A DNA stretch of 64,000 nucleotides, taken from positions 9,300,001 to 9,364,000 of the forward strand of contig NC_092346.1 in the NCBI RefSeq assembly GCF_963676685.1, read 5' to 3'. The notes under the pieces are model-generated. The model saw nothing but the letters and a program-made list of their open reading frames with translations. It had not been told where the DNA came from and made no database searches. The first letter of the stretch is position 1. Every line of letters begins with the position of its first letter. Positions 6,301 to 61,666 of the stretch are shown in pieces. This stretch comes from Mytilus edulis (lineage: Eukaryota). The position numbers and the translations under genes were made by a program.

Positions 6301-9300
6301 TTTAGTCTTTGGCATAAAACTACAAAGAAATTCTTTAATCGTTCTCTAAGACAAAGCTCAAATTGTAGATCTAATTAAAACGCAATGGTATTTAACTGAA
6401 TCAAGCTCTCATCACGGCAGGAACGTCCAATAACAGAAAGTAATTATCCGGTATACAAATCAAAATATAGCTTAATGTCCCATTCGGGCAGAAAATGATA
6501 CGCAAACAAGTGTACAAATCTAAATAGCTTAAGATTTATACATATTTCACTGCATAATATGCATTTTTAAAAGTTTTAACTGTAATAGATTGGTATCTTT
6601 GTAATGGCTAAAATAGGCATTCATTGCTTTTCCAATGCAGGTGCTAAGTATAGTGAAACCACAACCTAAGATGACTGATAAAAGATGATTTTTAGAGAAG
6701 ACGTTTTCATCAGAACAGAGTGGGTAGAAATTGAAACAATACCATGAATTCACAGTTCTATATCTCCTTTTTTTATATATAGATTGCAATAATTAATATC
6801 TGTCTTTCTTGCGTGGGCTTTTTCAAAAATGAAAATAAAGTATAATTGACTCATGTTTTTTAAAGCTGCAAATTAAAGTCCACACATTATGCCACTAAAT
6901 ACCAAAAATTCACAAGACACATACCTGATCTTGATAATCCTGAAATAAGACATATTTCCATAGAAAACATACACACATATATAGCTCTTCATCTTTTTAA
7001 TAAGCTTTCGATTTTCAAAAAATTTGGTCTCGAGCATCACTGAAGAGATATTGATTGTCAACATGCGCAACAGGTCTGAAAAGCTAATTTTATAACATAG
7101 ACATTCCAACTTTAACCAAAATAGTAAATACATAGATATGTTTATTACACGAACGATAAAATTGAGAATGGAAATTAATGGGGAATGTATCAAAGGGACA
7201 ACAACCCGACGATGTACAGTCTCAAGATCGAGAAATCATGACACATTTTTTTAAGGATGTTCGCTTCTCTGTTAAAAAATAACAAGCTTTTTAAAAGACT
7301 GTTATGAATTGATAGTATATAAATAAATAAACTAAAAAAGTAGAAAAAATGGAGATTCCGTGTGCTCGTTTTCGAGATATAAGCCATTGAAAATTTGGCG
7401 GGAAACAATTCTCTCTAGATTTTTCATATATTTAACATAGGCACCTTATCTGTTTCAAAAACTATGAAAAATAACAAGAATTCTATAAAATTTTGAAATA
7501 TGGCTTTTCAAACTTTATGTAATAAAATTATGAAAAGAAAAGTAGGGATTAGTGGGCAATTTCCGAAAATCTGGCAAAAAATCAAAAAATGGAGTAGCAA
7601 ACATCTTTAAATCAAACATTCAGTAACTTTTTAAACGTTAATTCAATCATAAAATAATTGTATTACCTGTGTTGCGTTGTTAATCCTTGACCCCGGTCTC
7701 CCTGGGGTAACACGACCGGGGGTATAAGCACCATATCTGCCTGTAGGGTTTGGAGGGGGTGACGGACAATTGACATCTCCATACGGATCATCTTCATATA
7801 CATCAGATGGATATCTGTAAACAAATATTTTGAATTTCATTAGTCTGTATATTTGATGCTATGCAATTTTATATCCGCGTAAGTATTTTATTGATGCAGT
7901 TGTTTTGATAAGTGCAACTACCACAGGCTAGTTCAGAACTATAAATCCGCCAATTTTTAACCTTTTCATCCTGAAAGAGTATTATTCTAGCTACTTCTAA
8001 ATTTGTAAGAAAATTACTATTATAAAAGTCTCCAGACTGGACTTACAACGTCAACTATGGGCATGCCCTCCGCCGCAAGAAAGCTCTAATGGCCCCGACG
8101 GTAGACAGGTCGGGAATATATATTCCAATGTTATTTCAACATAGAGAACCAAACATCTGACATGAAACTATTAATGTAATAAAATATGTCGTTACAAGGA
8201 GGAACACTAACGAAATTTCCGAAAAGAACATTTGATATACAAATATGCGGAAGGAAGGAAACATGTTCTGAAAATGATAACCACTTCCCTTTTTATCACA
8301 GCCAGTTGTCGAAAAAAAAACTCCCTCAAGTGTAAGCGGTTTTTTTTTTTTTGGTAAGAAGTTAAACACTACCTGAATGTACCAGTCGTTTGGTAGGTTA
8401 CAGAACTAGCCCTGTGGATCGGGTCATATTCCATCATCTCTATCAGATATCAGAAATGTTAGTACTTTTGATATATATCCCCTTGTCAATATCAGTTCTG
8501 TATAGCATGTCTGATTACTTATTTATACTGATAGCTTGTTGATTATTAGGTTCTGTAATACGGCATACACCAGGGGAATAACTATTTTATCGTCACCTAT
8601 ATATGATAATGTCTGGATTTTATGTTATTTAAGACAAAAATCATTATTGGTTAATTATGGTCCTAAACAAAATTGTCCATGGAGCAACTTTATGAGCTAC
8701 ATACATCTTTTAATAGTGCATTTGAATGAGGCTATCGGTAACAACTTGAACTTACGGCCATCTCTCTCTCTCTTGTGACCTGATTCAGCGACGATTTTTC
8801 CGAATACCAAAATATCAAGTGTTTCTCACTTGACAACTCGCAGTTTGGATTTTTAATATACATTTTTAGAATAATTTAAGTGATGACAGACCAGGTGATC
8901 ATTCCACAAGAGGGTCACACAAACTGTAATCGTTTAATAAGGCCAAATTAAAATTTTTTTAAAACAGAGCCACACAAACGTATTCTTAGAGTGTTGAATA
9001 TAAAGAGTTGGACAAGGTTTGTTCGTTGGACAAGGTCACACCAAGTCTTTTAATTTTCAATGAGGTCACAATATATCTGGTTCCTTGTTGTTTGTGCTGG
9101 TTTGGTTTTTTTGTGGTGGAAAGGGGGGTCATAACATACCACATGGTTCCCAATTATGATAACAATGTATTACTAGTTTGTTCTTTAAAGTTTCGAAGAA
9201 GATCTCGGCCATCTTATTTCTTGTTCTCTTGACAGGGACCATCTTATTTAATTCCTTGTTTTGTTAAGTATGACTATTGCACTTTGGAGAACACTCTACA

Positions 9301-27942: not shown

Positions 27943-29077
27943 ATTGTTACATTTTCATGATGATTTGAAAGAGAATAGGTCAATACGTCAATCACACCTC
28001 CTGTTTCCTAATTGCACCATATGCTCAGTTTAAGTTACAATGGTTATCTATATGTGTTGTATACAGTCACTTTACCTTGTACATGTCCATCTTTCACGAC
28101 TTAATTTTCTTTTATCATTGGATGTGTTACTTTTGTGTGTTATGTTAATAAACTGTAATCAGCAATAATGTTAAGCAGAGCTACAAATAAGTCAACATGA
28201 CCAAAATTGTTAATTGACTCCTTAAGTAGTTCTTGCCCTTTATAGTAAATTTTTAACCATTTTTCACAAGTTTTTGTCATCCTTTGCTGAAATCGTCTCC
28301 TGAAACTATATAGACAAATTATATCAAACTTGGTCACAATCATCATTATGATATCATTATAGTATTTAGTTTCAAAACAAAATGTGTCCAATGACCAGGT
28401 CGGCCAACCAACATGGCCGACATACCTTAAAATAGAACAAAGGGGTTAAATGCAGTTTTTGGCTTATATCTCTGAAACTAAAGCATTTAAAGCAAATCTG
28501 ACCTGGGTAAAATGTTCATCAGGTTAAGATCTATCTGCCATGAAAATGACCCTGCCATCCAACTAGCAATACCCTACGAGTTATATATAAATTATACTGG
28601 AACAAAATGCTTACTTAATCTTTAACTTGTCATGATGTAAACTTTATAACAAATATCTAGTCAACAGCATTGTGTATTGCACAAACTAAAAAAAAACGGG
28701 GTAAAAATATTTTTTTCCGGAGGAGGTCAATTCGCATCAGCAAAGTGTTTTGCACAAAAGCAAAAAAATAATATAAAATTATAACCAATTTGCAGTTCTT
28801 TGACTACAGTTATTCTATGCCAGAAACCTATTATGTGTCAAAATGTTAATTACAATCCAAATTCAGACCTGTATCAAGCGTAAATATTGTGTCCATTTTG
28901 ACCCCAACTTTTCAGGATTAGACATCTGCGGTCGTATCTAGCTGCGCTCAGCGAAGCAATTTATTTTTTCATCTGAATTTCTTACTTATCAGCAATAGAA
29001 TAAATTTATTTGGTATATGAGTTCCCCGCAAGGTTTACATGTCCGTCATTTGGCTTTTTTAGCTTTTTGGAATTCAA

Positions 29078-29200
29078 GCGTCACTGATGAGTCCTTTGTA
29101 AACAAACAAACGTCTGGTGTAAATATTTATCAAAGGTACCAGGATTATAATTTAGTACGCCAGCCGCGCGATTCGTCTACATAAGACTCATCAGTGACGC
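29078..29200. ncRNA. Inverted pair of decayed hammerhead motifs (+ 29078-29120, - 29157-29200)
   Basis: gcgtca-ctgatga-gtc on both strands; GAAA/GUC core mutated. Confidence 0.6.
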
Positions 29201-30597
29201 TCATATCAAAATATTTATAAAGCCAAACAAGTACAAAGTTGAAGAGCATTGAGGATCCAAAATTCCAAAATACAAAATGTAATCTTTGTATCTATGCTTA
29301 GTTTATTATCATACAATTGACCCCGACTTCAATAGTAGATATTTTAAATAGTTTAGTTTGTTTCTTAGATGCTATAAAAGAGAGAGAAAAGATACCAACT
29401 CATAAAGTCGGAAATTAAACGACAAAGCCATGGCTAAAACAAAAGACAAAATAACAAGTATACAAAACAACATTTATGCAATTACTCAACTATATTCGGT
29501 GTATCAAATGATTGTATGGTATATAGGTTTGTTTCACAGGCTTTATTAGAATTTGACCTCCTAGTCCTGGATCATCAATTAATGTTAATTCTATGGAATG
29601 TATTTTTAACACTTTCAACATACAACCAATCATAGTCGGTAAAACAGGCCAGACATTTCAGCATGTCCACTATTGTTATCTGTCAATCCATTCGATATGA
29701 AATGATTTTGATCATGTTGATATTATTGGTGCGTTATGACATTTTCGGCCAGTGTCGTGTAGATGTTATCTCCAAAATAGCCATTTCATAGATTATGCTT
29801 TTTAATATATTTTTCGTGCATTACATTTTGTTTCTGTGAGTCATGGTTGTCATTACTGCGGATGCATAACGTCAGGGTACACAAGTTGTACCTATATAAA
29901 AAAAAAAAAGCAGTTTTCCTACAGACAAAACAATTTGTATTTTTATAATATGATACTATGCACGTCTTTCAACATAGGTAAATATATTTAGATATACACA
30001 AAACGTTCAGTATCTATATACAGATTAAGTGTTTACTGAAAAAGTCAAATGTACGGAAAAGTCGCCATGCGACGCCATCAAAACGTCATCTTTTTACAAT
30101 TAGCATATAAATTATGTTACAAGCATCCACTTTTAAACCATGAAGAGTTAGCATAAACTAATATCCAATTGAACATTATATTTGAGGAAAGTAAACAAAG
30201 ATCTGTAATTCGTCTTTTGATAAGCATGGATGCAATTTGGGTACTCCTCCTTAAGAATCATTGATCGTTTGGGGGTCACTTCAGACCAATTTTTCAATGA
30301 TTCAATATGGATTCAATATTAAATTGAGGGAACTATATAGTGAATGTTTATATATCTACAAAATAAACAAGTAAAGGAAACTTTTGTCTGGATCATAAAT
30401 AAATGTAAGTTACACAACTGTCAAAATAGGTGCAATGTGGGTACCCTCATATTAGAAATCATTTTAAATTAAGGAATGTATCTCCCTCATGCAAAGCTCT
30501 GATTCCTTTCACTAATTTGGCTTTACTTTTTGGACCTTTTGGATTATTGCTCTTCATATTTTATATAAGCTTTGGATTTCAAATATTTTGGCCACGA

Positions 30598-30641
30598 GCA
30601 TCACTGAAGAGACATGTATTGTCGAAATGCGCATCTGGTGC
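30598..30641 (+). ncRNA. Type I hammerhead ribozyme, copy 1 (cleavage 3' of C30635)
   Basis: Stem I GCAUCA/UGGUGC, core CUGAAGA, stem II GACA-UGUAU-UGUC, GAAA, palindromic stem III AUGCGCAU, AUC cleavage triplet. Confidence 0.9.
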
Positions 30642-30947
30642 AAGAACATTGGTACCGTTAATTTTATTACTACCACTGGGTCGATGCCTCTGCTGGTGGA
30701 CTATTAGTCCCCGAGGGTATCACCAGCCCAGTAGCCAGTACTTCGGTACTGGCATGAAAATACGGATTGTTTGTTTTATTTAAATTTGCTGTTACAAAAT
30801 ATTAGAAATCATTTTAAATTAAGGAATGTATCTCCCTCATGCAAAGCTCTGATTCCTTTCACTAATTTGGCTTTACTTTTTGGACCTTTTGGATTATTGC
30901 TCTTCATATTTTATATAAGCTTTGGATTTCAAATATTTTGGCCACGA

Positions 30948-30991
30948 GCATCACTGAAGAGACATGTATTGTCGAAATGCGCATCTGGTGC
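30948..30991 (+). ncRNA. Type I hammerhead ribozyme, copy 2 (cleavage 3' of C30985)
   Basis: Identical to copy 1, +350. Confidence 0.9.
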
Positions 30992-31297
30992 AAGAAAATT
31001 GGTACCGTTAATTTTATTACTACCACTGGGTCGATGCCTCTGCTGGTGGACTATTAGTCCCCGAGGGTATCACCAGCCCAGTAGCCAGTACTTCGGTACT
31101 GGCATGAAAATACGGATTGTTTGTTTTATTTAAATTTGCTGTTACAAAATATTAGAAATCATTTTAAATTAAGGAATGTATCTCCCTCATGCAAAGCTCT
31201 GATTCCTTTCACTAATTTGGCTTTACTTTTTGGACCTTTTGGATTATTGCTCTTCATATTTTATATAAGCTTTGGATTTCAAATATTTTGGCCACGA

Positions 31298-31341
31298 GCA
31301 TCACTGAAGAGACATGTATTGTCGAAATGCGCATCTGGTGC
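31298..31341 (+). ncRNA. Type I hammerhead ribozyme, copy 3 (cleavage 3' of C31335)
   Basis: Identical to copy 1, +700. Confidence 0.9.
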
Positions 31342-32107
31342 AAGAAAATTGGTACCGTTAATTTTATTACATAGCAAGAGATGCTTAAATTGTAAACGTA
31401 CACAGTCATGCTATTTTTAAAGGTTCTTTGCCTGTACCAAGTCAGGAATATGACAGTTCTTGTCCATTCGTTTTTGATGCGTTTTGTTATTTGATTTTGC
31501 CATGTGATTATGGACTTTCCCAATTGATCTTCCTCTAAGTTCAGTATTTTTGTGATTTTACTTTTTATTTCCTGAGATTTGATCTTGATCTGTCCATAAT
31601 TGATTGGTAAGCTTCAAACATTGGTAAAATTCTGTTGATTTAATCTATTAATGCAAAATATATAGATCCGTTTTACATTCTGAAAACATTATTGGTGTGA
31701 AAATATTTCTTATTCTGTGAATGAAGATGTACATCAACCAGTTATAACAAAAGATCTATGATCTAAAGGTCAATTCATGGTCTTTAAAAAAAAACAATTA
31801 TACGATACGTCAATCATAGACTTGCCCAAAGTTTTTAAGTTGATTGAAATGACACTTTATAAGATAGTTGTTCAGTTGTAGCTTTAAACTAAACCAAACA
31901 AAAATGCATTAATACATGTATAAAAATAGAATATGATAATATTGTAAGTAAATTATGAATTTGTATTCATGTTTTGGTTACAAGCTTAAGTTTGTGCTTG
32001 GGAATAATCAAAAACAGAATCCAGAGAAAAGAATTGTGTATATTGTGACTTTGTCAGTTTTGATCCTGTATTTGTATGTACTAGAGTAAAGCTATTTACC
32101 ATATACC

Positions 32108-32335: not shown

Positions 32336-34114
32336 TTAAATGGTTTCATTTTGAATACACAAATTACTACAATCACTGTTGCCGAATCCTGAAACCTGAA
32401 CTGTATATAGTTTGGCCTCATCAGACCCACTTTTGTATGTACCACAACCTATGTATAATGTTCCTGTATTGTCAAAGTCTAAAGAGAATGGTAACTGAAT
32501 ACCTAACTGATCCTTAGTGTACAGGTAATAAACACACTGTCCATAATAAGTGTCAATGATATGAATTATGTGATGGGTACTATCTGCAACTATAATATTG
32601 TCTGATTTTGTAGCCATTAAATCTTTAGGCGTGAATGTTCGTTGTTTGTTGATGTGTTGATCACTATATACCCATCTTATTCCATTGGTTTTATTTAATG
32701 CAACTATTCTACCATCGTAGTCTGCATTGAGACGATCTAGGACATAACAGTTATTGTCATTGTCTGAAGTTATTCTTGCAGCAGCTGTTAAGATAGATTG
32801 CCCATTATTGTCTAAATGGTACATTTTTTCTTTCCTTCCATTCATATCCATCACAATGACCTGTCTAGGACCATTGACTGGAAATGGTTCTCCATTTTCT
32901 CTAACCCCTACCATGATTTGGTTATCTTTGGTTACATGAACAGCTAAGGTTAGAAGAGAAGCAACGCTGAATATAGACCGTTTAATTTCTCCAGTAGCCT
33001 TAGAAAGTATTTGCAGAGCATCTGTCTTTGAAGATATCAGTAAATCCCCTGTCGGTAATAAAGCCATGCTATATGCAAATGCTTTTTGTTTCTTAAGGAT
33101 CTGTACCGATTCTGAGCCTTTCTTTAGTTGTATCTTCCTTAATTTATTAGTCTTAGTGTGGTTTATCCACATAGTTCCATCTTCACAGCAAACTAAATTT
33201 TCTACAGTTGTGAATTTAGTTTTAAACTGCTGTAGCACATGGAATTCGAATTTGTACTGTTCCTTATCTCCAAGCTCAGTCAATACTCCATGTTGTGATA
33301 ACAAAATTGGTTGTTTTCCTGGTACATATTGTGGCAATCCCTTAATCCTAGTGTTCACTGGTGCTACTCTCTGTTTACTATCTGCTCTTAGTTCTCTTTC
33401 CCGTTTGAATATGTTGAATACCTCAGTTGCATTGTTTTGTTTTAGGGTGTGACCTAGGCTCTCTCTACGAATTTCTAAATCTTTTTTCAACTTCTTTGAT
33501 CTATTTTCTTCATTTTGTACTGATTTCTTTAGAAACTCCCTTCGTTGATCAAGTTTCATCAAAAGATTATGTGTATGCATTTCAACTTCATTCTTTAAAA
33601 CTCTTTCCCTGTTCAGAATTTTCTGCTTCTCTGATTCATATAATGATTCTTCAGAGGTTTTCCTAATATCCAGTTTAGATAATCCTTTCTCAATTTGTAA
33701 AATGTTTTCTTCAACTTCAGTATGAAAGTTATTGACAGCTTCCAATGTCAACTCATACTCTTTAGCTAATCCTATCATGTCGTGGGTGTTATGGGCTTGA
33801 AGAAAACATAAAGGACAGATAATTTCCTCACATGTCTTGCAAAACTGGCAACAGTTTTGTCCATTATGAACACTACATGGAATATTAATTATGTCTGGTT
33901 GATCATTGACTTCTTGTTGATATGTAGTTATGTCTTTAATGTCTATGATTATATGCTGGTCGGTAGATTTCACTTTCTGATGAAGTTGTTGACATTTTGT
34001 ACACAAGAGAAAGTCACACTGTAAACATTTCCATTTTATCTCATTAGATTCCTCACACATCTGGCAGAGCATAGGAGCTTGTCCACTTTGAAGAGAATTT
34101 GATAATGCCATCAT
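32336..34114 (-). CDS. RING-less TRIM-like protein A (B-box1, B-box2, coiled coil, NHL-type beta-propeller), 592 aa
   Basis: CQMC..CLQC..CTKC..H..H and CSVH..CQFCKTC..CPLC..HNTH zinc ligands; E/K/L-rich heptads; repeats such as PKDLMATKSDNIIVAD and PFSLDFDNTGTLYIG; 5'UTR acceptor ttcccag at 34152. Confidence 0.92.
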   Translation of the reverse strand: MMALSNSLQSGQAPMLCQMCEESNEIKWKCLQCDFLLCTKCQQLHQKVKSTDQHIIIDIKDITTYQQEVNDQPDIINIPCSVHNGQNCCQFCKTCEEIICPLCFLQAHNTHDMIGLAKEYELTLEAVNNFHTEVEENILQIEKGLSKLDIRKTSEESLYESEKQKILNRERVLKNEVEMHTHNLLMKLDQRREFLKKSVQNEENRSKKLKKDLEIRRESLGHTLKQNNATEVFNIFKRERELRADSKQRVAPVNTRIKGLPQYVPGKQPILLSQHGVLTELGDKEQYKFEFHVLQQFKTKFTTVENLVCCEDGTMWINHTKTNKLRKIQLKKGSESVQILKKQKAFAYSMALLPTGDLLISSKTDALQILSKATGEIKRSIFSVASLLTLAVHVTKDNQIMVGVRENGEPFPVNGPRQVIVMDMNGRKEKMYHLDNNGQSILTAAARITSDNDNNCYVLDRLNADYDGRIVALNKTNGIRWVYSDQHINKQRTFTPKDLMATKSDNIIVADSTHHIIHIIDTYYGQCVYYLYTKDQLGIQLPFSLDFDNTGTLYIGCGTYKSGSDEAKLYTVQVSGFGNSDCSNLCIQNETI

Positions 34115-34563
34115 GGGAATCTACGTTTAGAACATTTTGTTCACATTATACCTGGGAAATTCTATCTCACATAATTATTCAAGACTATTAATAGTAACAT
34201 CGTCATTATTTAATATACTTTGTGTTTATGTTATATAGCGAGACGACGTCACTAATGGTGTTATTTGCAAATAGAATATGTTTAAACTAAAATTTAAAAA
34301 GCAGATAGTATACCATGCCTTTAAATAAAGTAATCTTTTATACCTATAACATGCTAACATATCGATGACAATGGATTAAAATTTGAGGACTCTACTGTGT
34401 AAATAGGGTACTATTATACATATGTTATATATATAGACAGTCATGACTTCTTTTGTTACTACATACTATTTTCGTCGTGTATTAATTTTTACAAATTTTG
34501 CAGTAGTAAATACAAGTGAAGACAAATGCAACTTGAATGGATGTAGTAACCTTTTGATAATTT

Positions 34564-36580: not shown

Positions 36581-36895
36581 TCTTATTCTGTTTAATAAAA
36601 AAAATGTGTGACCTCTCCTATCAACCAAGATGGTCGTTGCCATATGAAAAATGGAACCCCCCTCCTAAATTTGAACCCAAGGTCAAAATCCCAAAATTAA
36701 AAATTACCCCAGTACGTGTCCATTGACACAATTGAACCCCTTGTATTTCTTTAAAAAGTAAAATCACAAAAATGCTAAACCCCGAGGAAAATTCAAAACG
36801 GAAAGTTGTATTTGGCAAAACTTTTAGGAATTTTGGTCCTCAATGCTCTTCAACTTCGTCCTTTATTTTTGCATTTAGATTTTTTTGGGATTCGA

Positions 36896-36939
36896 GCGTC
36901 ACTGATGAGTCATTTGTAGACGAAACGCGCGTCTGGTGT
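36896..36939 (+). ncRNA. Type I hammerhead ribozyme with intact core (CUGAUGA family)
   Basis: GCGUCA-CUGAUGA-GUC(AUUUGUA)GAC-GAAA-CGCGCG-UC-UGGUGU; GUC cleavage 3' of 36933. Confidence 0.8.
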
Positions 36940-47719: not shown

Positions 47720-49462
47720 TCACCATATGCCGAATCCTGAAACCTGAACTGTATATAGTTTGGCCTCATTAGATTCATTGTTGTATATACCACACCCTAT
47801 GTATAATGTTCCTGTATTGTCAAATTCTAAAGAGAACGGTAACTGAATACCTAACTGATCCTTAGTGTACAGGTAATACAAACACTGTCCATAATAAGTG
47901 TCAATGATATGAATTATGTTATTGGTACTATCTGCAACTATAATATTGTCTGATTTTGTAGCAATTAAATCTTTAGGCGTGAATGTTCGTTGTTTGTTGA
48001 TGTGTTGATCACTATATACCCATCTTATTCCATTGGTTTTATTTAATGCAACTATTCTACCTTCGTAGTCTGCATTGAGACGATCTAGAACATAACAGTT
48101 ATTGTCATTGTCTGAAGTTATTCTTGCAGCAGCTGTAAAGATAGATTGCCCATTATTGTCTAAATGGTACACCTTTTCTTTCCTTCCAATCATATCCAAC
48201 ACAATGACCTGTCTAGGACCATTGGCTGGAAATGGTTCTCCATTTTCTCTAACCCCTACTATGATTTGGTTAGCTTTGGTTACATGAACAGCTAAGGTAA
48301 GAAGAGGTGCAAAGCTGAATATAGACCGTTTAATTTCTCCAGTAGCTTTAGAAAGTATTTGAAGAGCATCTGTCTTTGAAGATATCAGTAAATCCCCTGT
48401 CGGTAATAAAGCCATGCTAAATGCAAATGCTTTTAGTTTCTTAAGGATCTGTACCGGTTCTGATCCTTTCTTTAGTTGTATCTTCCGTAATTTATTAGTC
48501 ACACTGTTGTTTATCCACATAGTTCCATCTTCACAGCAAACTAAATTTTCTACAACTATGAATTTAGTTTTAAACTGCTGTAGCACTTGGAATTTAAATT
48601 TGTACTGTTCCTTATCTCCAAGCTCAGTCAATACTCCGTGTTGTGACATCAAAATTTGTTGTTTTCCTGGTACATATTGTGGCAATCCCTTAATCCTAGT
48701 GTTCACTGGTGCTATTCTCTGTTTACTGTCTGCTCTTAATTCTCTTTCCTGTTTGAATATGTTGAAAACTTCAGTTGCATTGTTTTGTTTTAGGGTGTGA
48801 TCTAGGCTCTCTCTCCGAATTTCTAAATCTTTTTTTAACTTCTTTGATCTATTTTCTTCATTTTGTACTGATTTCTTAAAATACTCCCTCCGGTGATCAA
48901 GTTTCATCAAAAGATTCTGTGTATGCATTTCAATTTCATTCTTTAAAGTTCTTTCCCTGTTCAGAATTTTCTGCTTCTCTGATTCATATAATGATTCTTC
49001 AGAGGTTTTCCTAATATCGAGTTTAGATAATCCTTTCTCAATTTGTAAAATGTTTTCTTCCACTTCCGTACGAAAGTTATTGACAGCTTCCAATGTCAAC
49101 TCATACTCTTTAGCTAATCCTATCATGTCGTGGGTGTTATGGGCTTGAAGAAAACATAAAGAACAGATAATTTCCTCACATGTCTTGCAAAACTGGCAAC
49201 AGTTTTGTCCATTATGAACACTACATGGAGTATTAATTATGTCTGGTTGATCATTGACGTCGTGTTGATATGTAGTTATGTCTTTAATGTCTATAATTAT
49301 ATGCTGGTCGGTAGATTTCACCTTCTGATGAAGTTGTTGACATTTTGTACACAAGAGAAAGTCACACTGTAAACATTTCCATTTGATCTCATTAGATTCC
49401 TCACACATCTGGCAGAGCATAGGAACTTGTCCACTCTGTAGAGAATTTGATAATGCCATCAT
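47720..49462 (-). CDS. RING-less TRIM-like protein B (B-box/B-box/coiled coil/NHL), 580 aa
   Basis: Intact ORF, highly similar to protein A with the same domain motifs. Confidence 0.92.
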   Translation of the reverse strand: MMALSNSLQSGQVPMLCQMCEESNEIKWKCLQCDFLLCTKCQQLHQKVKSTDQHIIIDIKDITTYQHDVNDQPDIINTPCSVHNGQNCCQFCKTCEEIICSLCFLQAHNTHDMIGLAKEYELTLEAVNNFRTEVEENILQIEKGLSKLDIRKTSEESLYESEKQKILNRERTLKNEIEMHTQNLLMKLDHRREYFKKSVQNEENRSKKLKKDLEIRRESLDHTLKQNNATEVFNIFKQERELRADSKQRIAPVNTRIKGLPQYVPGKQQILMSQHGVLTELGDKEQYKFKFQVLQQFKTKFIVVENLVCCEDGTMWINNSVTNKLRKIQLKKGSEPVQILKKLKAFAFSMALLPTGDLLISSKTDALQILSKATGEIKRSIFSFAPLLTLAVHVTKANQIIVGVRENGEPFPANGPRQVIVLDMIGRKEKVYHLDNNGQSIFTAAARITSDNDNNCYVLDRLNADYEGRIVALNKTNGIRWVYSDQHINKQRTFTPKDLIATKSDNIIVADSTNNIIHIIDTYYGQCLYYLYTKDQLGIQLPFSLEFDNTGTLYIGCGIYNNESNEAKLYTVQVSGFGIW

Positions 49463-51482
49463 GTGAATCTACGTTTAGAACATGTTGTTCACATTATACC
49501 TGGGAAATACTATCTCACATAATTATTCAAGACTATTAATAGTAACATCGTCATTATATAATATACTTTGTGTTTATGTTATATATCACTAATGGTGATT
49601 TAAAAACCTGATACAATGCATTTAAATAGATTAATCTTTTATACCTATAACATACTAACAGATCGATGACAATGAATTCAAATTTGAGGGGATACTGTTT
49701 AGACAGTCATTACCTCTTTTGTTACTACATACTATTTTCGTGGTGTATTTATTTTTACAAATTTTGCAGTTGTAAATTTACGTGAAGACAAATGCAGCTT
49801 GAATGGATGTAGTAACCTTTTGATAATTTTCATCGGAATTTACAGCTACTAGTATACACGTTGTACCTGGTTGCCCTTTACACAACCTCATGTAAACGGT
49901 GGTAGTGTTAAAAGACTAGTGATCCATACAAACAATCGATTTCTTTCCTTTTTGGATAAATTGAAGATTTCAATTGTATCTTTTACTGAGATTCTTTCTC
50001 TCTCTCTGCGATTTACTAAATCTGTTTTGATCTTCTGTGATCTTTTTTCTTCATCTTGCACTGATTTCTTATGAAAATATTTTCTTTAGAAAATCCCTTC
50101 ATTGGTCAAGTTCTATCAAAAGACTGATGAAACAACGAAACAGACATTAACAGCACTTATATATGAATAAGACGATGTAGTATGACTGCTAATGAGACAA
50201 ATCTTCTCTGTTATATTCGTGTGTTATGGTAAAGACAATCAATCACCCCCTTTATTTATTAGATTTTAAGTTTGGTTCAACGAAATCTATACGATATATT
50301 TGGTTAACAGTTTGATTCAGAAGAAACACCGACATAGCTAGATAATACAATTAATTATCTAATTACTACCACAATTTCATATTAATAAGTATTGTAATTT
50401 TCATTATTATTGATAAATGGAATATCAGTGAAACAAATCTAATTTTAACATACTTAAATCAATCCTAATTCTATCTTATTTTTGGGAAATATTTTTACAA
50501 ATTAAAATGTGTCGTCACTTTGTATGTTTTTTTTTAGAATTTCAAATGTGATGTCACTTTGTGCGTTGAGGCTTTGGCTAACTCGGCTGTATATTTTTAT
50601 GTGCTGTATGGATTGTTTTATGTAATGTGTCTGTTTCATCATGTATATCTATTATACAGTCATTTTTTTTAAAGAAATTTACTGTTTGCAAAAGTATGAA
50701 TTATTCTAAATAATAAGGATGTTCTTATCCCAGGCAGACAACCCTGGCCGTATTGGGCACACTATTTTGGAACTTTTGGTCCTCAGCGCTCTTAAATTTT
50801 GTACTGGTTTTGGCTTTCGAACTTTTTTCATCCGAGGGTCATTACTTAGTCTTGTGTGGACGAAACGCACGTCTGGCGTATTCAATTTTAAAACTAGTAC
50901 CTTTTGTTCGCTATTATTCGTGTGTTTTTTGTCCTATATGTTCTCTCATTTATTTATATTGTAGTCTTGTCATGTAATGTTGTAATTTTAATGTTCTATT
51001 TAACATTGCCATACAAGCGGGAGATTTGGCATGCCACAAATCCTGGTTCAACCAACCATTTTTTCTTGAAATGTCCTGTACCAAGTTAGGAAAATGGCCA
51101 TTGTTATATTATAGTTCGTTTATGTGTGTGTTACATTTTAATGTTGTGTTTCTGTTGTGTCGTTGTTCTCCTCTTATATTTGATGCGTTTCCCTCAGTTT
51201 TAGTTTGTAACAAGGATTTGGTTTTTTCTCTATCGATTTATGAGTTTCGAACAGCGGTATACTACTGTCAAAGTCACAATGTTAAAATGTAAAAAGTAAA
51301 CTAGTAGACAAAAAATTAAATTAATAGTCAAATGTTGATGAATTATCAAGAATGCCTATCTTCAAAGATAAAGAAGTTAAACGGACTATACCCTTTATTT
51401 CCTATTATTCATTCAAAAAGGAAAAACCTTTCCATATGTCTGCTTTATTAACTTTCCTATAGACACAAACCACCTCCTTTAT

Positions 51483-58073: not shown

Positions 58074-59816
58074 TCACCATATGCCGAATCCTGAAACCTG
58101 TACTGTATATAGTTTGGCCTCAACAGATCCATTTATGAATGTACCACACCCTATGTATAATGTTCCTGTATTGTCAAAGTCTAAAGAGAACGGTAACTGA
58201 ATACCTAACTGATCCTTAGTGTACAGGTAATACAAACACTGTCCATAATAAGTGTCAATGATATGAATTATGTGATGGGTACTATCTGCAACTATAATAT
58301 TGTCTGATTTTGTAGCCACTAAATCTTTAGGCGTGAATGTTCGTTGTATGTTGATGTGTTGATCACTATATACCCATCTTATTCCATTGGTTTTATTTAA
58401 TGCAACTATTCTACCATCGTAGTCTGCATTGAGACGATCTAGAACATAACAGTTATTGTCATTGTCTGAAGTTATTCTTGCAGGAGCTGTAAAGATAGAT
58501 TGCCCATTATTGTCTAAATGGTACACCTTTTCTTTCCTTCCATTCATATCCAACACAATGACCTGTCTAGGACCATTGACTGGAAATGGTTCTCCATTTT
58601 CTCTAACCCCTACTATGATTTGGTTAGCTTTGGTTACATGAACAGCTAAGGTTAGAAGAGGTGCAAAGCTGAATATAGACCGTTTAATTTCTCCAGTAGC
58701 CTTAGAAAGTATTTGCAGAGCATCTGTCTTTGAAGATATCAATAAATCCCCTGTCGGTAATAAAGCCATGCTATATGCAAATGCTTTTAGTTTCTTAAGG
58801 ATCTGTACCGGTTCTGATCCTTTCTTTAATTGTATCTTTCGTAATTTATTAGTCATACTGTTGTTTATCCACATAGTTCCATCTTCACAGCAAACTAAAT
58901 TATTTACAATTATGAATTTAGTTTTAAACTGCTGTAGCACTTGGAAATTAAATTTGTACTGTTCCTTATCTCCAAGCTCAGTCAATACTCCGTGTTGTGA
59001 CATCAAAATTGGTTGTTTTCCTGGTACATATTGTGGCAATCCCTTCATCATACTGTTCGCTGGTGCCATTCTCTGTTTACTGTCTGCTCTTAGTTGTCTT
59101 TCCTGTTTGAATATGTTGAAAACTTCAGTTGCATTGTTTTGTTTTAGGGTGTGATCTAGGCTCTCTCTCCGAATTTCTAAATCTTTTTTTAACTTTTTTG
59201 ATCTATTTTCTTCATTTTGTACTGCTTTCTTAAAATACTCCCTCCGGTGATCAAGTTTCATCAAAAGATTATGTGTATGCATTTCAACTTCATTCTTTAA
59301 AACTCTTTCCCTGTTCAGAATTTTCTGCTTCTCTGATTCATATAATGATTCTTCAGAGGTTTTCCTAATATCTAGTTTAGATAATCCTTTCTCAATTTGT
59401 AAAATGTTTTCTTCAACTTCAGTATGAAAGTTATTGACAGCTTTCAATGTCAACTCATATTCTTTAGCTAATCCTATCATGTCGTGGGTGTTATGGGCTT
59501 GAAGAAAACATAAAGGACAGATAATTTCCTCACATGTCTTGCAAAACTGGCAACAGTTTTGTCCATTATGAGCACTACATGGAATATTAATTATGCCTGG
59601 TTGATCATTGACTTCTTGTTGATATGTAGTTATGTCTTTAATGTCTATAATTATATGCTGGTCGGTAGATTTCACTTTCTGATGAAGTTGTTGACATTTT
59701 GTACACAAGAGAAAGTCACACTGTAAACATTTCCATTTGATCTCATTAGATTCCTCACACATCTGGCAGAGCATAGGAACTTGTCCACTCTGTAGAGAAT
59801 TTGATAATGCCATCAT
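58074..59816 (-). CDS. RING-less TRIM-like protein C (B-box/B-box/coiled coil/NHL), 580 aa
   Basis: Intact ORF paralogous to A and B. Confidence 0.92.
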   Translation of the reverse strand: MMALSNSLQSGQVPMLCQMCEESNEIKWKCLQCDFLLCTKCQQLHQKVKSTDQHIIIDIKDITTYQQEVNDQPGIINIPCSAHNGQNCCQFCKTCEEIICPLCFLQAHNTHDMIGLAKEYELTLKAVNNFHTEVEENILQIEKGLSKLDIRKTSEESLYESEKQKILNRERVLKNEVEMHTHNLLMKLDHRREYFKKAVQNEENRSKKLKKDLEIRRESLDHTLKQNNATEVFNIFKQERQLRADSKQRMAPANSMMKGLPQYVPGKQPILMSQHGVLTELGDKEQYKFNFQVLQQFKTKFIIVNNLVCCEDGTMWINNSMTNKLRKIQLKKGSEPVQILKKLKAFAYSMALLPTGDLLISSKTDALQILSKATGEIKRSIFSFAPLLTLAVHVTKANQIIVGVRENGEPFPVNGPRQVIVLDMNGRKEKVYHLDNNGQSIFTAPARITSDNDNNCYVLDRLNADYDGRIVALNKTNGIRWVYSDQHINIQRTFTPKDLVATKSDNIIVADSTHHIIHIIDTYYGQCLYYLYTKDQLGIQLPFSLDFDNTGTLYIGCGTFINGSVEAKLYTVQVSGFGIW

Positions 59817-61666
59817 GTGAATCTACGTTTACAACATTTTGTTCACATTATACCTGGGAAATACTATCTCACATAATAATTCATTACACGACTATTAATA
59901 GTATCATCGTCATTATATAATATACTTTGTGTTTATGTTATATAGCGAGACGACGTCACTAATGGAGTTATTTGCAAATGAAATATGTTTAAACTAAAAT
60001 TTCAAAACCTGATACCATACCTTTAAATAGAATAATCTTTTATACCTATAGTATACTAACAGATCGATAACAATGAATTCAAATTTGAGGACTCTACTGT
60101 GTAAATATGATAGTATTTAGACAGTCATGATGATGACTTCTTTTGTTTTCGTGGTGTATTTATTTTTTCAAATTTTGCAGTAGTAAATACACGTGAAGAC
60201 AAATGCAGCTTGAATGGATGTATAGTAACCTCTTGATACTTTTCATCGGTTTACCTTTTTGCCCTTTACATAACCTCATGCAAACTGTGGAATGTTAAAA
60301 AGACCAGTGATCCATACAGAAAATCGATTTCTTTCCTGTTTGGATAAATGGAAGATTTCAATTATATCATTGACTGAGGCCCTCTCTCTCTGCGATTTAG
60401 TAAATCTGTTTTGATCTTATGTGATCTTTTTTCTTTCATTAATTTCTTTATAAAAAAAATCATCTTTAGAAAATCCCTTCAGTGATCAATTTCTATCAAA
60501 AGATTGATGAAACAATGAAACAGACATTTACAGCACTTATATATAAATAAGACGGTGTAGTATGACTGCAAATGAGACAAATTTTTGTTGTTATATTCGT
60601 GTGTCATGGTAAATATAATTAATCACCCCTTCATTTATTAGATTTTAGTTTGGTTCAACGAAATCTATACGATATATTTGGTTTACAGTTTGATTCAGGA
60701 GAAACAACGACATAGCTAGATTATACAATCAATTATCTAATTACTACCACAACTTCATATTAATGAGCATTGTAATTTTCATTGTTATTGATGAATGGAA
60801 TATCAGTAGTACAAATCTAATCTTAAATCAATCCTTACTCTTTCTTATTTTTGGGAAATATATTTAGAATTTCGAATGTGACGTCACTTTGTGCGTTTAT
60901 GCGTTGGCTAACTCGGCTGTGTATTTTGATGTGCTGTATTAGGTTGTTTTATGTAATGTTGTTATTCTGTAGTTAGTCACCACTTCAGTTTTATCATGCA
61001 TAGCTATTATATGATCATTTTTTTTTTATATAAAATTATCTGTTTGCAAAAGTATGAATTATTCTAAATAATAAGGATGTTCTTATCCCAGGCAGAAAAC
61101 CCTGGTAGTATTGGGTACAACTTTTTGGAACTTTTGGTCCTCAGTGCTCGTCAACTTTGTTTTGGCCTTCGAACTATTTTCATCCGAGCGTCATAGCCTT
61201 AGGTTAGTCTTGTGTGAACGAAACGCACGTCTGGCGTATTCAATTTTAGATCTGTTGCCTTTTCGTTTGATATTATTCGTGTGTTTTTTTACTGTCCTAT
61301 ATGTTCTCCCATTTATTTGTATTGTAGTCTTGTCATGTAATGTTGTAATTTTAATGTTATATTTAACATTGCAATAAAAGCGGGAGGTTTGGCATGCCAC
61401 AAAATCAGGTTCAACCCACCATTTTTTCTTATTTTATTTTTTAGTATGTAACCCGGATTTGTTTTTTTCTATCGATTACGAGTTTTGAACAGCGGTATAC
61501 TACTGTTGCCTTTATTTATCAATCAAAGTCACAATGTTAAAATGTAAAAAGTAAACAAGTCGACAAAAAAATGAAATTAATAGTCAATATTGATATGAAA
61601 AAAATGAATTTACAAGAATGTCTATCTTTAAAGATAAAAAAGTTAAACGGACTATACTCTTTTTTT

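Follow-up and report, generated by a model that had tools for sequence, protein, structure and literature searches.

Naiad Penelope-like elements (PLEs) encode a protein with an N-terminal GIY-YIG and a C-terminal reverse transcriptase (RT) domain (Craig et al. 2021, PMC8557442); the available text of that study describes neither an RNA structure at the 5' end nor a sequence link between Naiads and retrozymes. The non-LTR retrozymes of Mytilus galloprovincialis are 350-390-nt tandem repeats with a type I hammerhead that cleaves in vitro, they occur as circles, and PLEs have been proposed as their mobiliser (Cervera and de la Pena 2020, PMC7229834); the main text of the paper, in its available part, mentions neither a second conserved motif nor a fixed end of insertions, and it assigns no PLE clade. 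Retrozymes of vertebrates have terminal sequence in common with PLEs and have been interpreted as their non-autonomous derivatives (Li, Clavereau, Pollet 2026, bioRxiv 10.64898/2026.07.22.740005). This account differs from the present one in being centred on Xenopus, with Naiad figuring only as present in a coral, and its main text, as available, never mentions Mytilus, stem, hairpin or pseudoknot. The Poseidon_Ac PLE protein, according to the available text, begins within its RNA, at nt 111-118 of the ORF, and requires that RNA as far as nt 172; the genomic ends of Poseidon_Ac coincide with these start sites (Frangieh et al. 2024, PMC11167929). The available literature thus proposes PLEs only in general as the enzyme copying animal retrozyme circles, and the choice of template and start site by PLEs is barely known, from one in vitro study.

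Structured cis-acting RNAs read by their own RT for template and start include the R2 3' UTR, the LINE-SINE stem-loop and the template-pseudoknot region of telomerase, whose closest relatives are the PLE reverse transcriptases. The R2 and LINE enzymes start at their RNA's 3' terminus and copy through the signal; the structured domain of telomerase RNA lies 3' of the copied stretch. The stem described below would, by analogy, work alike as a cis-acting RNA read by an RT, but it has no pseudoknot, and the likeness drawn is one of function, not a claim of homology in sequence or fold.

The window (the whole 64,000-nt stretch of DNA that was analysed) contains the following features:

30449..31370, + strand: retrozyme array of family A, 2.6 units of 350 nt (sequence repeats)
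30598..30641, + strand: type I hammerhead, read from sequence, predicted cut after 30635
30661..30674, + strand: U-rich linker in which insertions have their fixed 3' end; putative RT start at ~30667-30670, 4-7 nt before P1
30675..30732, + strand: conserved Naiad leader stem, 58 nt (family comparison, published Naiads)
30675-81/30726-32, + strand: helix P1 (computed fold and covariation)
30682 and 30722-25, + strand: 1x4 internal loop (computed fold)
30683-88/30716-21, + strand: helix P2 (computed fold and covariation)
30690-98 (CTGCTGGTG) and 30709-15 (CCCCGAG), + strand: near-invariant core, its pairs computed
up to 30710, + strand: variable P4 hairpin (computed fold)
30734..30753, + strand: UUCG hairpin P5, GCCAGTAC-TTCG-GTACTGGC, in retrozymes only
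30754..30756, + strand: ATG where the start codon of a Naiad ORF would sit; stop after 9 codons here
30948-30991 and 31298-31341, + strand: further hammerhead copies (read from sequence)
31025..31103, + strand: second, identical copy of stem and UUCG hairpin (91.8 bits; +350 repeat)
31429..31566, + strand: separate fragment of the Naiad N1 3' end, 138 nt (135/138 identical), ending at the usual N1 terminus

The array has the layout of a non-LTR retrozyme, i.e. tandem units of 150-450 bp with a type I hammerhead in each and no protein, and in its 350-nt units and hammerhead type it resembles the retrozymes of M. galloprovincialis as described in the available text. Its 5' end is arbitrary and its 3' end lies 4 nt before the expected third P1; a 20-mer of the unit has 2068 exact copies genome-wide (such counts refer to a 1.37-Gb animal assembly). 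The hammerhead comprises stem I (GCATCA/TGGTGC), a CTGAAGA core, stem II, GAAA and a short stem III, and its predicted cut, read from the sequence, is 39 nt from P1. In one raw RNA run (2235 reads) the unit is transcribed, with a strand bias and with reads reaching across the unit seam, where a circle and tandem read-through look alike. A preliminary description of this DNA had placed an unnamed structured RNA module, a pseudoknot plus a UUCG hairpin, inside the retrozyme, and the strands of its helices are all present (ACTGGG at 30675-80 and CCCAGT at 30727-32, CTGGT at 30693-97 and ACCAG at 30722-26, and the hairpin GGACT-ATT-AGTCC at 30698-30710), as is the recurrence at 31025-31103, displaced by +350.

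At gathering, Rfam reported 0 matches across the window and missed even the window's own hammerhead, which indicates that its sensitivity is limited here; with this reservation, the module yields no match to the known small ribozymes and other RNA families in Rfam (twister, HDV-like, pistol, hatchet and others). At E<=10 there were 0 matches on positions 30560-30800, and the N3 leader (see below) gave only 2 chance-level sRNA matches. ARAGORN found no tRNA cloverleaf, and an origin of the stem from a tRNA or a Pol III B-box was rejected, as the B-box-like word is lost in N2 and in the oyster Naiads.

When the genome was searched with a 35-letter stem pattern, 6,115 exact matches were obtained (control 0), and the stem is common to four hammerhead-retrozyme families, A (that of the window), B, C and D, all of which retain the hammerhead, that of family D being different (723 matches of its own pattern). 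Families A, B and D are 86-93% identical over the 58-nt stem vs 62-67% over the rest of the unit. Hammerhead-less mini-arrays with units of ~130, 201 and 279 nt keep the stem and the tail and little else, and they form a natural deletion series; those at L421 (G000:C2:95560000-95564000), L422 and L440 consist of the Naiad stem, ORF start and 3' tail (279, ~130 and 201 nt, respectively). Family E is a 550-nt retrozyme (890 exact pattern matches; >200 reads in one raw RNA run) with a hammerhead similar to that of A, and its units at 30 loci have 0 stem matches, the matches found there being stray copies of other families. Its insertions end ~370 nt past the cut, mostly at (TA)n (L461-L490, e.g. 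L478:951-1500). The stem is therefore not required by every retrozyme and looks like a handle for one partner clade; the mover of family E is probably another PLE clade, whose signal the sequence just past the family E end may hold.

A search of the genome for GIY-YIG domains led to a frame of 1,053 codons (N1), the first ATG of which follows a diverged copy of the stem, and a search with the N1 endonuclease retrieved two further families, 67% and 61% identical. In all three, N1, N2 and N3, the stem is the 5' UTR just ahead of the ATG, at a distance of 9-15 nt in N2 and N3. The proteins carry, in one ORF, GIY-YIG at residues ~135-270 and RT at ~645-900, i.e. N-terminal and C-terminal, respectively, with Pfam scores under the cut-off for RT in all three and for GIY-YIG in N3; in the control L300 this order is reversed. 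The translation of N1 contains a CxC linker and a DKA motif, that of N3 CxC; the families form partial tandems (pseudo-LTRs) and show 5' truncation, and the 5' end of N1 matches the published start of Naiad_Mgal, which marks the genome as mussel-like. With the domain order of N1-N3 and the CxC and DKA motifs of N1 shared with the published Naiads, we classify N1-N3, at the level of sequence, as Naiad-type Penelope-like families; the stem-bearing members are intact and apparently young, with numerous intact frames of near-identical sequence in N3. PLE loci with a C-terminal endonuclease (L151-L170, L291-L310) have no stem at their 5' ends, and the only stem matches among them are a stray retrozyme copy and Naiad N1. 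The window copy differs from the Naiad leader in lying in a non-coding 350-nt repeat with an added UUCG hairpin, and the ATG at 30754..30756 is, judged from its position, a vestige of that leader.

Beyond this genome, we inspected by eye the first 140-280 nt of each of the 54 Naiad consensus sequences available from the published set (PMC8557442). The canonical core is found at or near the start in 13/54, with <=1 mismatch per helix in P1 and P2, so that the stem is the 5'-terminal sequence of these elements: nine from bivalves (CGi, Sglo, Olur, Tgra, Pmar, Mcor, Mgal, Bpla, Mphi), three from acorn worms and Cmel from a toadfish. A variant of the core occurs in 4/54 (three Acropora and one ctenophore Naiad), and in the other 37/54 no such core was seen within the inspected 140-280 nt, a few of them having loosely similar long stems. 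A metagenome scan with a loose pattern returned 120 chance stretches, in which no stem was found by nhmmer over all 120 or by a covariance model over 80 of them; the cross-species evidence is therefore that of the published Naiad consensuses, read by eye.

The computed fold of the stem is nested, with P1 of 7 bp, a 1x4 internal loop, P2 of 6 bp, bulged core pairs and P4, and such a nested bulged stem was computed in 9/9 representatives of seven families; the twister-like topology suggested in the preliminary description is unsupported. The 79-mer folds at -40.7 kcal/mol (z -4.36; 0/200 shuffles as stable) and the reverse strand folds alike (z -4.52), so that folding energy by itself cannot assign the strand. 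On alignment A2 (8 rows: six retrozyme rows, N2 and N3), P1 and P2 are each 100% paired, with two-sided changes in 3/7 and 4/6 pairs, respectively, and slid controls are 36-46% paired. The covariation score was reached by 0/500 shuffles, a figure that is no probability because the rows are related, and the independent lineages behind it are few (7 in the genome). N1, whose inserted hairpin was misplaced by MAFFT, and family C lie outside the pair counts and were parsed by motif anchoring instead; by this parsing N1 keeps 7/7 P1 and 6/6 P2 pairs, with further changes. P2 had been drawn with seven pairs, GATGCC(T) at 30683-89 with (G)GGTATC at 30715-21: both strands are present and six of the pairs are kept, but the seventh, U30689-G30715, is broken in 3/8 A2 rows. 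The core pairs never vary on A2, and their pairing is a computed prediction. The two-sided changes and G-U intermediates in P1 and P2 indicate a structure at the RNA level; together with the 0 Rfam matches they bear out the idea of a conserved, unnamed RNA module within a hammerhead retrozyme, for which covariation had been the check proposed.

The folding program draws no crossing helices, hence the claimed CUGGU/ACCAG pseudoknot was tested by comparison, and it is not supported. Its pairs are formed in 97.5% of A2 cells and all five are possible in families A-D and N2, which leaves room for a transient contact in retrozymes, but 0/5 show two-sided changes: CTGGT is invariant, and the partner strand reads ACCAG, ATCAG, ATCCG, ATTAA or ATTTA. 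Only 4/5 pairs are left in N3 and 3-4/5 in N1, and among published Naiads (by eye, from the available consensuses) all five are possible in 1/13 and 2/5 in the oyster and pearl-oyster elements. The last pair competes with the always-kept seventh pair of P1; moreover, with 0 bases between the 3' strands of P2 and of the pseudoknot, a stretch of 3-4 nt would need to bridge 11 pairs in a stack. The UUCG hairpin, formerly counted as part of the conserved unit, is missing from the autonomous Naiads N1-N3 and present in retrozymes only, where P5 covaries among families A, B and D and the loop differs from UUCG in family C. It is best read as a later retrozyme addition, probably with a stabilising role.

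Target-primed reverse transcription is usually recognised by precise 3' ends combined with ragged 5' ends. We counted insertion ends by distinct flanks and scored those at -10..-2 from P1, most of which lie at -4 to -7. Ends fall within this interval in 62/69 cases for family A (loci partly picked by tail pattern), 18/21 for family A loci anchored in the hammerhead and not tail-picked, 31/44 for B, 9/15 for D (6/15 scored at -14), 37/41 for N3, 13/14 for N2 and 9/10 for N1; family C, for which the anchor failed, is outside these counts and its ends were judged by eye. The 5' ends of family A insertions are scattered, with no enrichment at the hammerhead cut or the stem as judged by eye. At 31018/31019, one raw RNA run has read junctions with mixed loose ends (159). 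From the precise 3' and ragged 5' ends we infer an RT start just upstream of the stem. Furthermore, 53/54 Naiad-type stem copies run on for 30 to >700 nt into the element's own 3' end (9 of these come from mini-arrays, and in AT-rich DNA the alignments stop imprecisely). The end pattern is the signature one would expect if reverse transcription begins at a set spacing from the stem on an unbroken template. The possibility that the hammerhead sets the insertion start was rejected: the distance from cut to end is ~34-45 nt in families A-D (by eye) vs ~370 nt in E, which has an A-like hammerhead, no stem and another end, and Naiads have no canonical hammerhead at that place.

As the stem is shared with Naiads, covaries, is placed before the AUG and has fixed ends upstream of it, we propose that it is a start handle for the Naiad enzyme: it is likely, though not assured, that the stem serves as a docking and internal-start signal for the Naiad RT and has been kept by retrozymes, which would name Naiads as their mobiliser. 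This agrees with one of the four functions guessed in the preliminary description, an RT-recruitment or priming signal. The Naiad endonuclease-RT would dock on the bulged core, which is near-invariant; the U-rich linker would receive a nicked, AT-rich end of DNA, and the enzyme would begin to copy 4-7 nt upstream of the stem, moving away from it. On a retrozyme circle, which the hammerhead would cut and a host ligase presumably close, the RT would pass the stem on its way round, and the resulting arrays would be precise at their 3' and ragged at their 5' end. In Naiad RNA, a start at this place would first copy the upstream terminal repeat; the layout of partial tandems would arise as copying went on through a template that is tandem, circular or reached by a jump.

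Poseidon_Ac, as far as the available text goes (PMC11167929), offers a parallel in that a PLE RT starts within the RNA near the 5' region of the element and depends on ~55-60 nt located 3' of its start, a stretch about as long as the 58-nt stem. It belongs to another clade with a C-terminal endonuclease, and its start lies inside the ORF, at an AC-rich stem-loop with two sites and no conserved fold defined, whereas the start proposed here is placed upstream of a leader stem that is conserved in several phyla.

A fixed end beside a structure would also fit RNA cleavage at that place followed by efficient template jumping. In another reading, the stem would be an RNA of undescribed type that cleaves, unaided or with the help of a protein, ~5 nt 5' of its own position, the cut making the 3' end for the RT; HDV-like ribozymes cut so at the R2 5' end. 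We regard this as unlikely. The near-invariant core, the fixed 3' ends and the lack of a match to known RNA families are all in line with it, and the stem lies at the exact unit boundary of elements reported, in the available text, to be without canonical hammerheads (PMC8557442). However, a self-cut at -5 should leave many full-length copies starting there, and of the Naiad-type copies only 1/54 begins at the stem, the rest running on. The mussel retrozymes are 350-400-nt circles and a dimer transcript gives the full monomer in vitro (PMC7229834, available text), and a hammerhead is present as well in all four stem-bearing retrozyme families. RNA reads of one raw run cross the site with no accumulation of ends there, a comparison weakened by the equal absence of a pile-up at the hammerhead cut.

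Slightly less probable still is that the stem acts as DNA or in expression, i.e. as an internal promoter, an endonuclease homing site or a Naiad translation leader that retrozymes merely carry. Its position directly before the AUG in N1-N3 and the near-invariance of the core sequence would be accounted for, and the endonuclease of D. virilis Penelope recognises its own terminal 'tail' DNA (cited in the available text of PMC11167929). Against this reading, the two-sided changes and G-U intermediates of P1 and P2 indicate RNA structure, the 86-93% conservation persists in non-coding retrozymes whose ORF stops after few codons, and a promoter or leader leaves the 3' ends fixed just upstream unexplained. 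Finally, a pseudoknot with UUCG hairpin that blocks nucleases or aids ligation, as the preliminary description also envisaged, is very improbable: the 5'-OH end that hammerhead cleavage leaves is indeed 39 nt from the stem, but the stem is also found in Naiads without a canonical hammerhead nearby, and the crossing pairs lack two-sided change, conflict with P1 and are broken in N3, N1 and most of the published Naiads available for comparison.

Returning to the start handle for the Naiad RT, the stem has a fixed spacing to the inferred cDNA start and is kept in non-autonomous derivatives, as befits an RT-recognition RNA. It is a real and conserved cis-acting RNA that has apparently not been described before; in the literature, mainly the openly accessible part, we found no account of the stem and none of a link in sequence between Naiads and mussel retrozymes. 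What is added to the preliminary description is that the stem is the Naiad 5' leader, fixed a few bases past the insertion end. That Naiads share it with >6,000 retrozyme copies in one genome puts a name to the enzyme, delimits the RNA and predicts where the start lies; if the proposal is true, the enzyme that spreads these retrozymes is identified as Naiad, and the fixed ends and partial tandems are accounted for. We speculate, more tentatively, that the 58-nt handle, belonging to one Naiad lineage that extends from comb jellies and corals to fish, could by itself make the Naiad enzyme start a few bases upstream of it on any RNA that is continuous or circular; retrozymes would then be hammerhead circles that carry it, with different retrozyme families carrying handles for different PLE clades.

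Two other structured stretches were noted in the Naiads. About 26-60 nt past the ATG of N3 (L379), N2 (L374) and N1 (L384) there is an H-type pseudoknot with two-sided changes across the three families: ACTGG/CCAGT and TCGGAC/GTCCGA in N3, CTGG/CCAG and TGACAC/GTGTCA in N2 (second-ranked fit) and CCGG/CCGG and GGGAC/GTCCT in N1. Its third loop has 8-9 nt, A-rich in N2 and N3, and is followed by a GGACAC..GTGTCC hairpin; it is visible by eye in several of the published Naiads available and absent from retrozymes. The 3' UTR of N3 (L379, L376) contains a GC-rich multi-hairpin stretch ~130-230 nt before the end, with a by-eye likeness in several available bivalve and acorn-worm Naiads.

Elsewhere in the window there are remnants of further, decayed retrozymes: two family B/C hammerheads in inverted arrangement at 29077-29201, a 3' piece of family C at 36810-36938 that stops at the usual tail, and a family A fragment at 6980-7075. 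The long ORFs of the window are B-box genes with no relation to the stem: three single-exon paralogous ORFs of 582-594 codons on the - strand (32336-34120, 47720-49468 and 58074-59822) encode B-box zinc fingers, with a weak NHL match in one, and form a TRIM-like tandem cluster.
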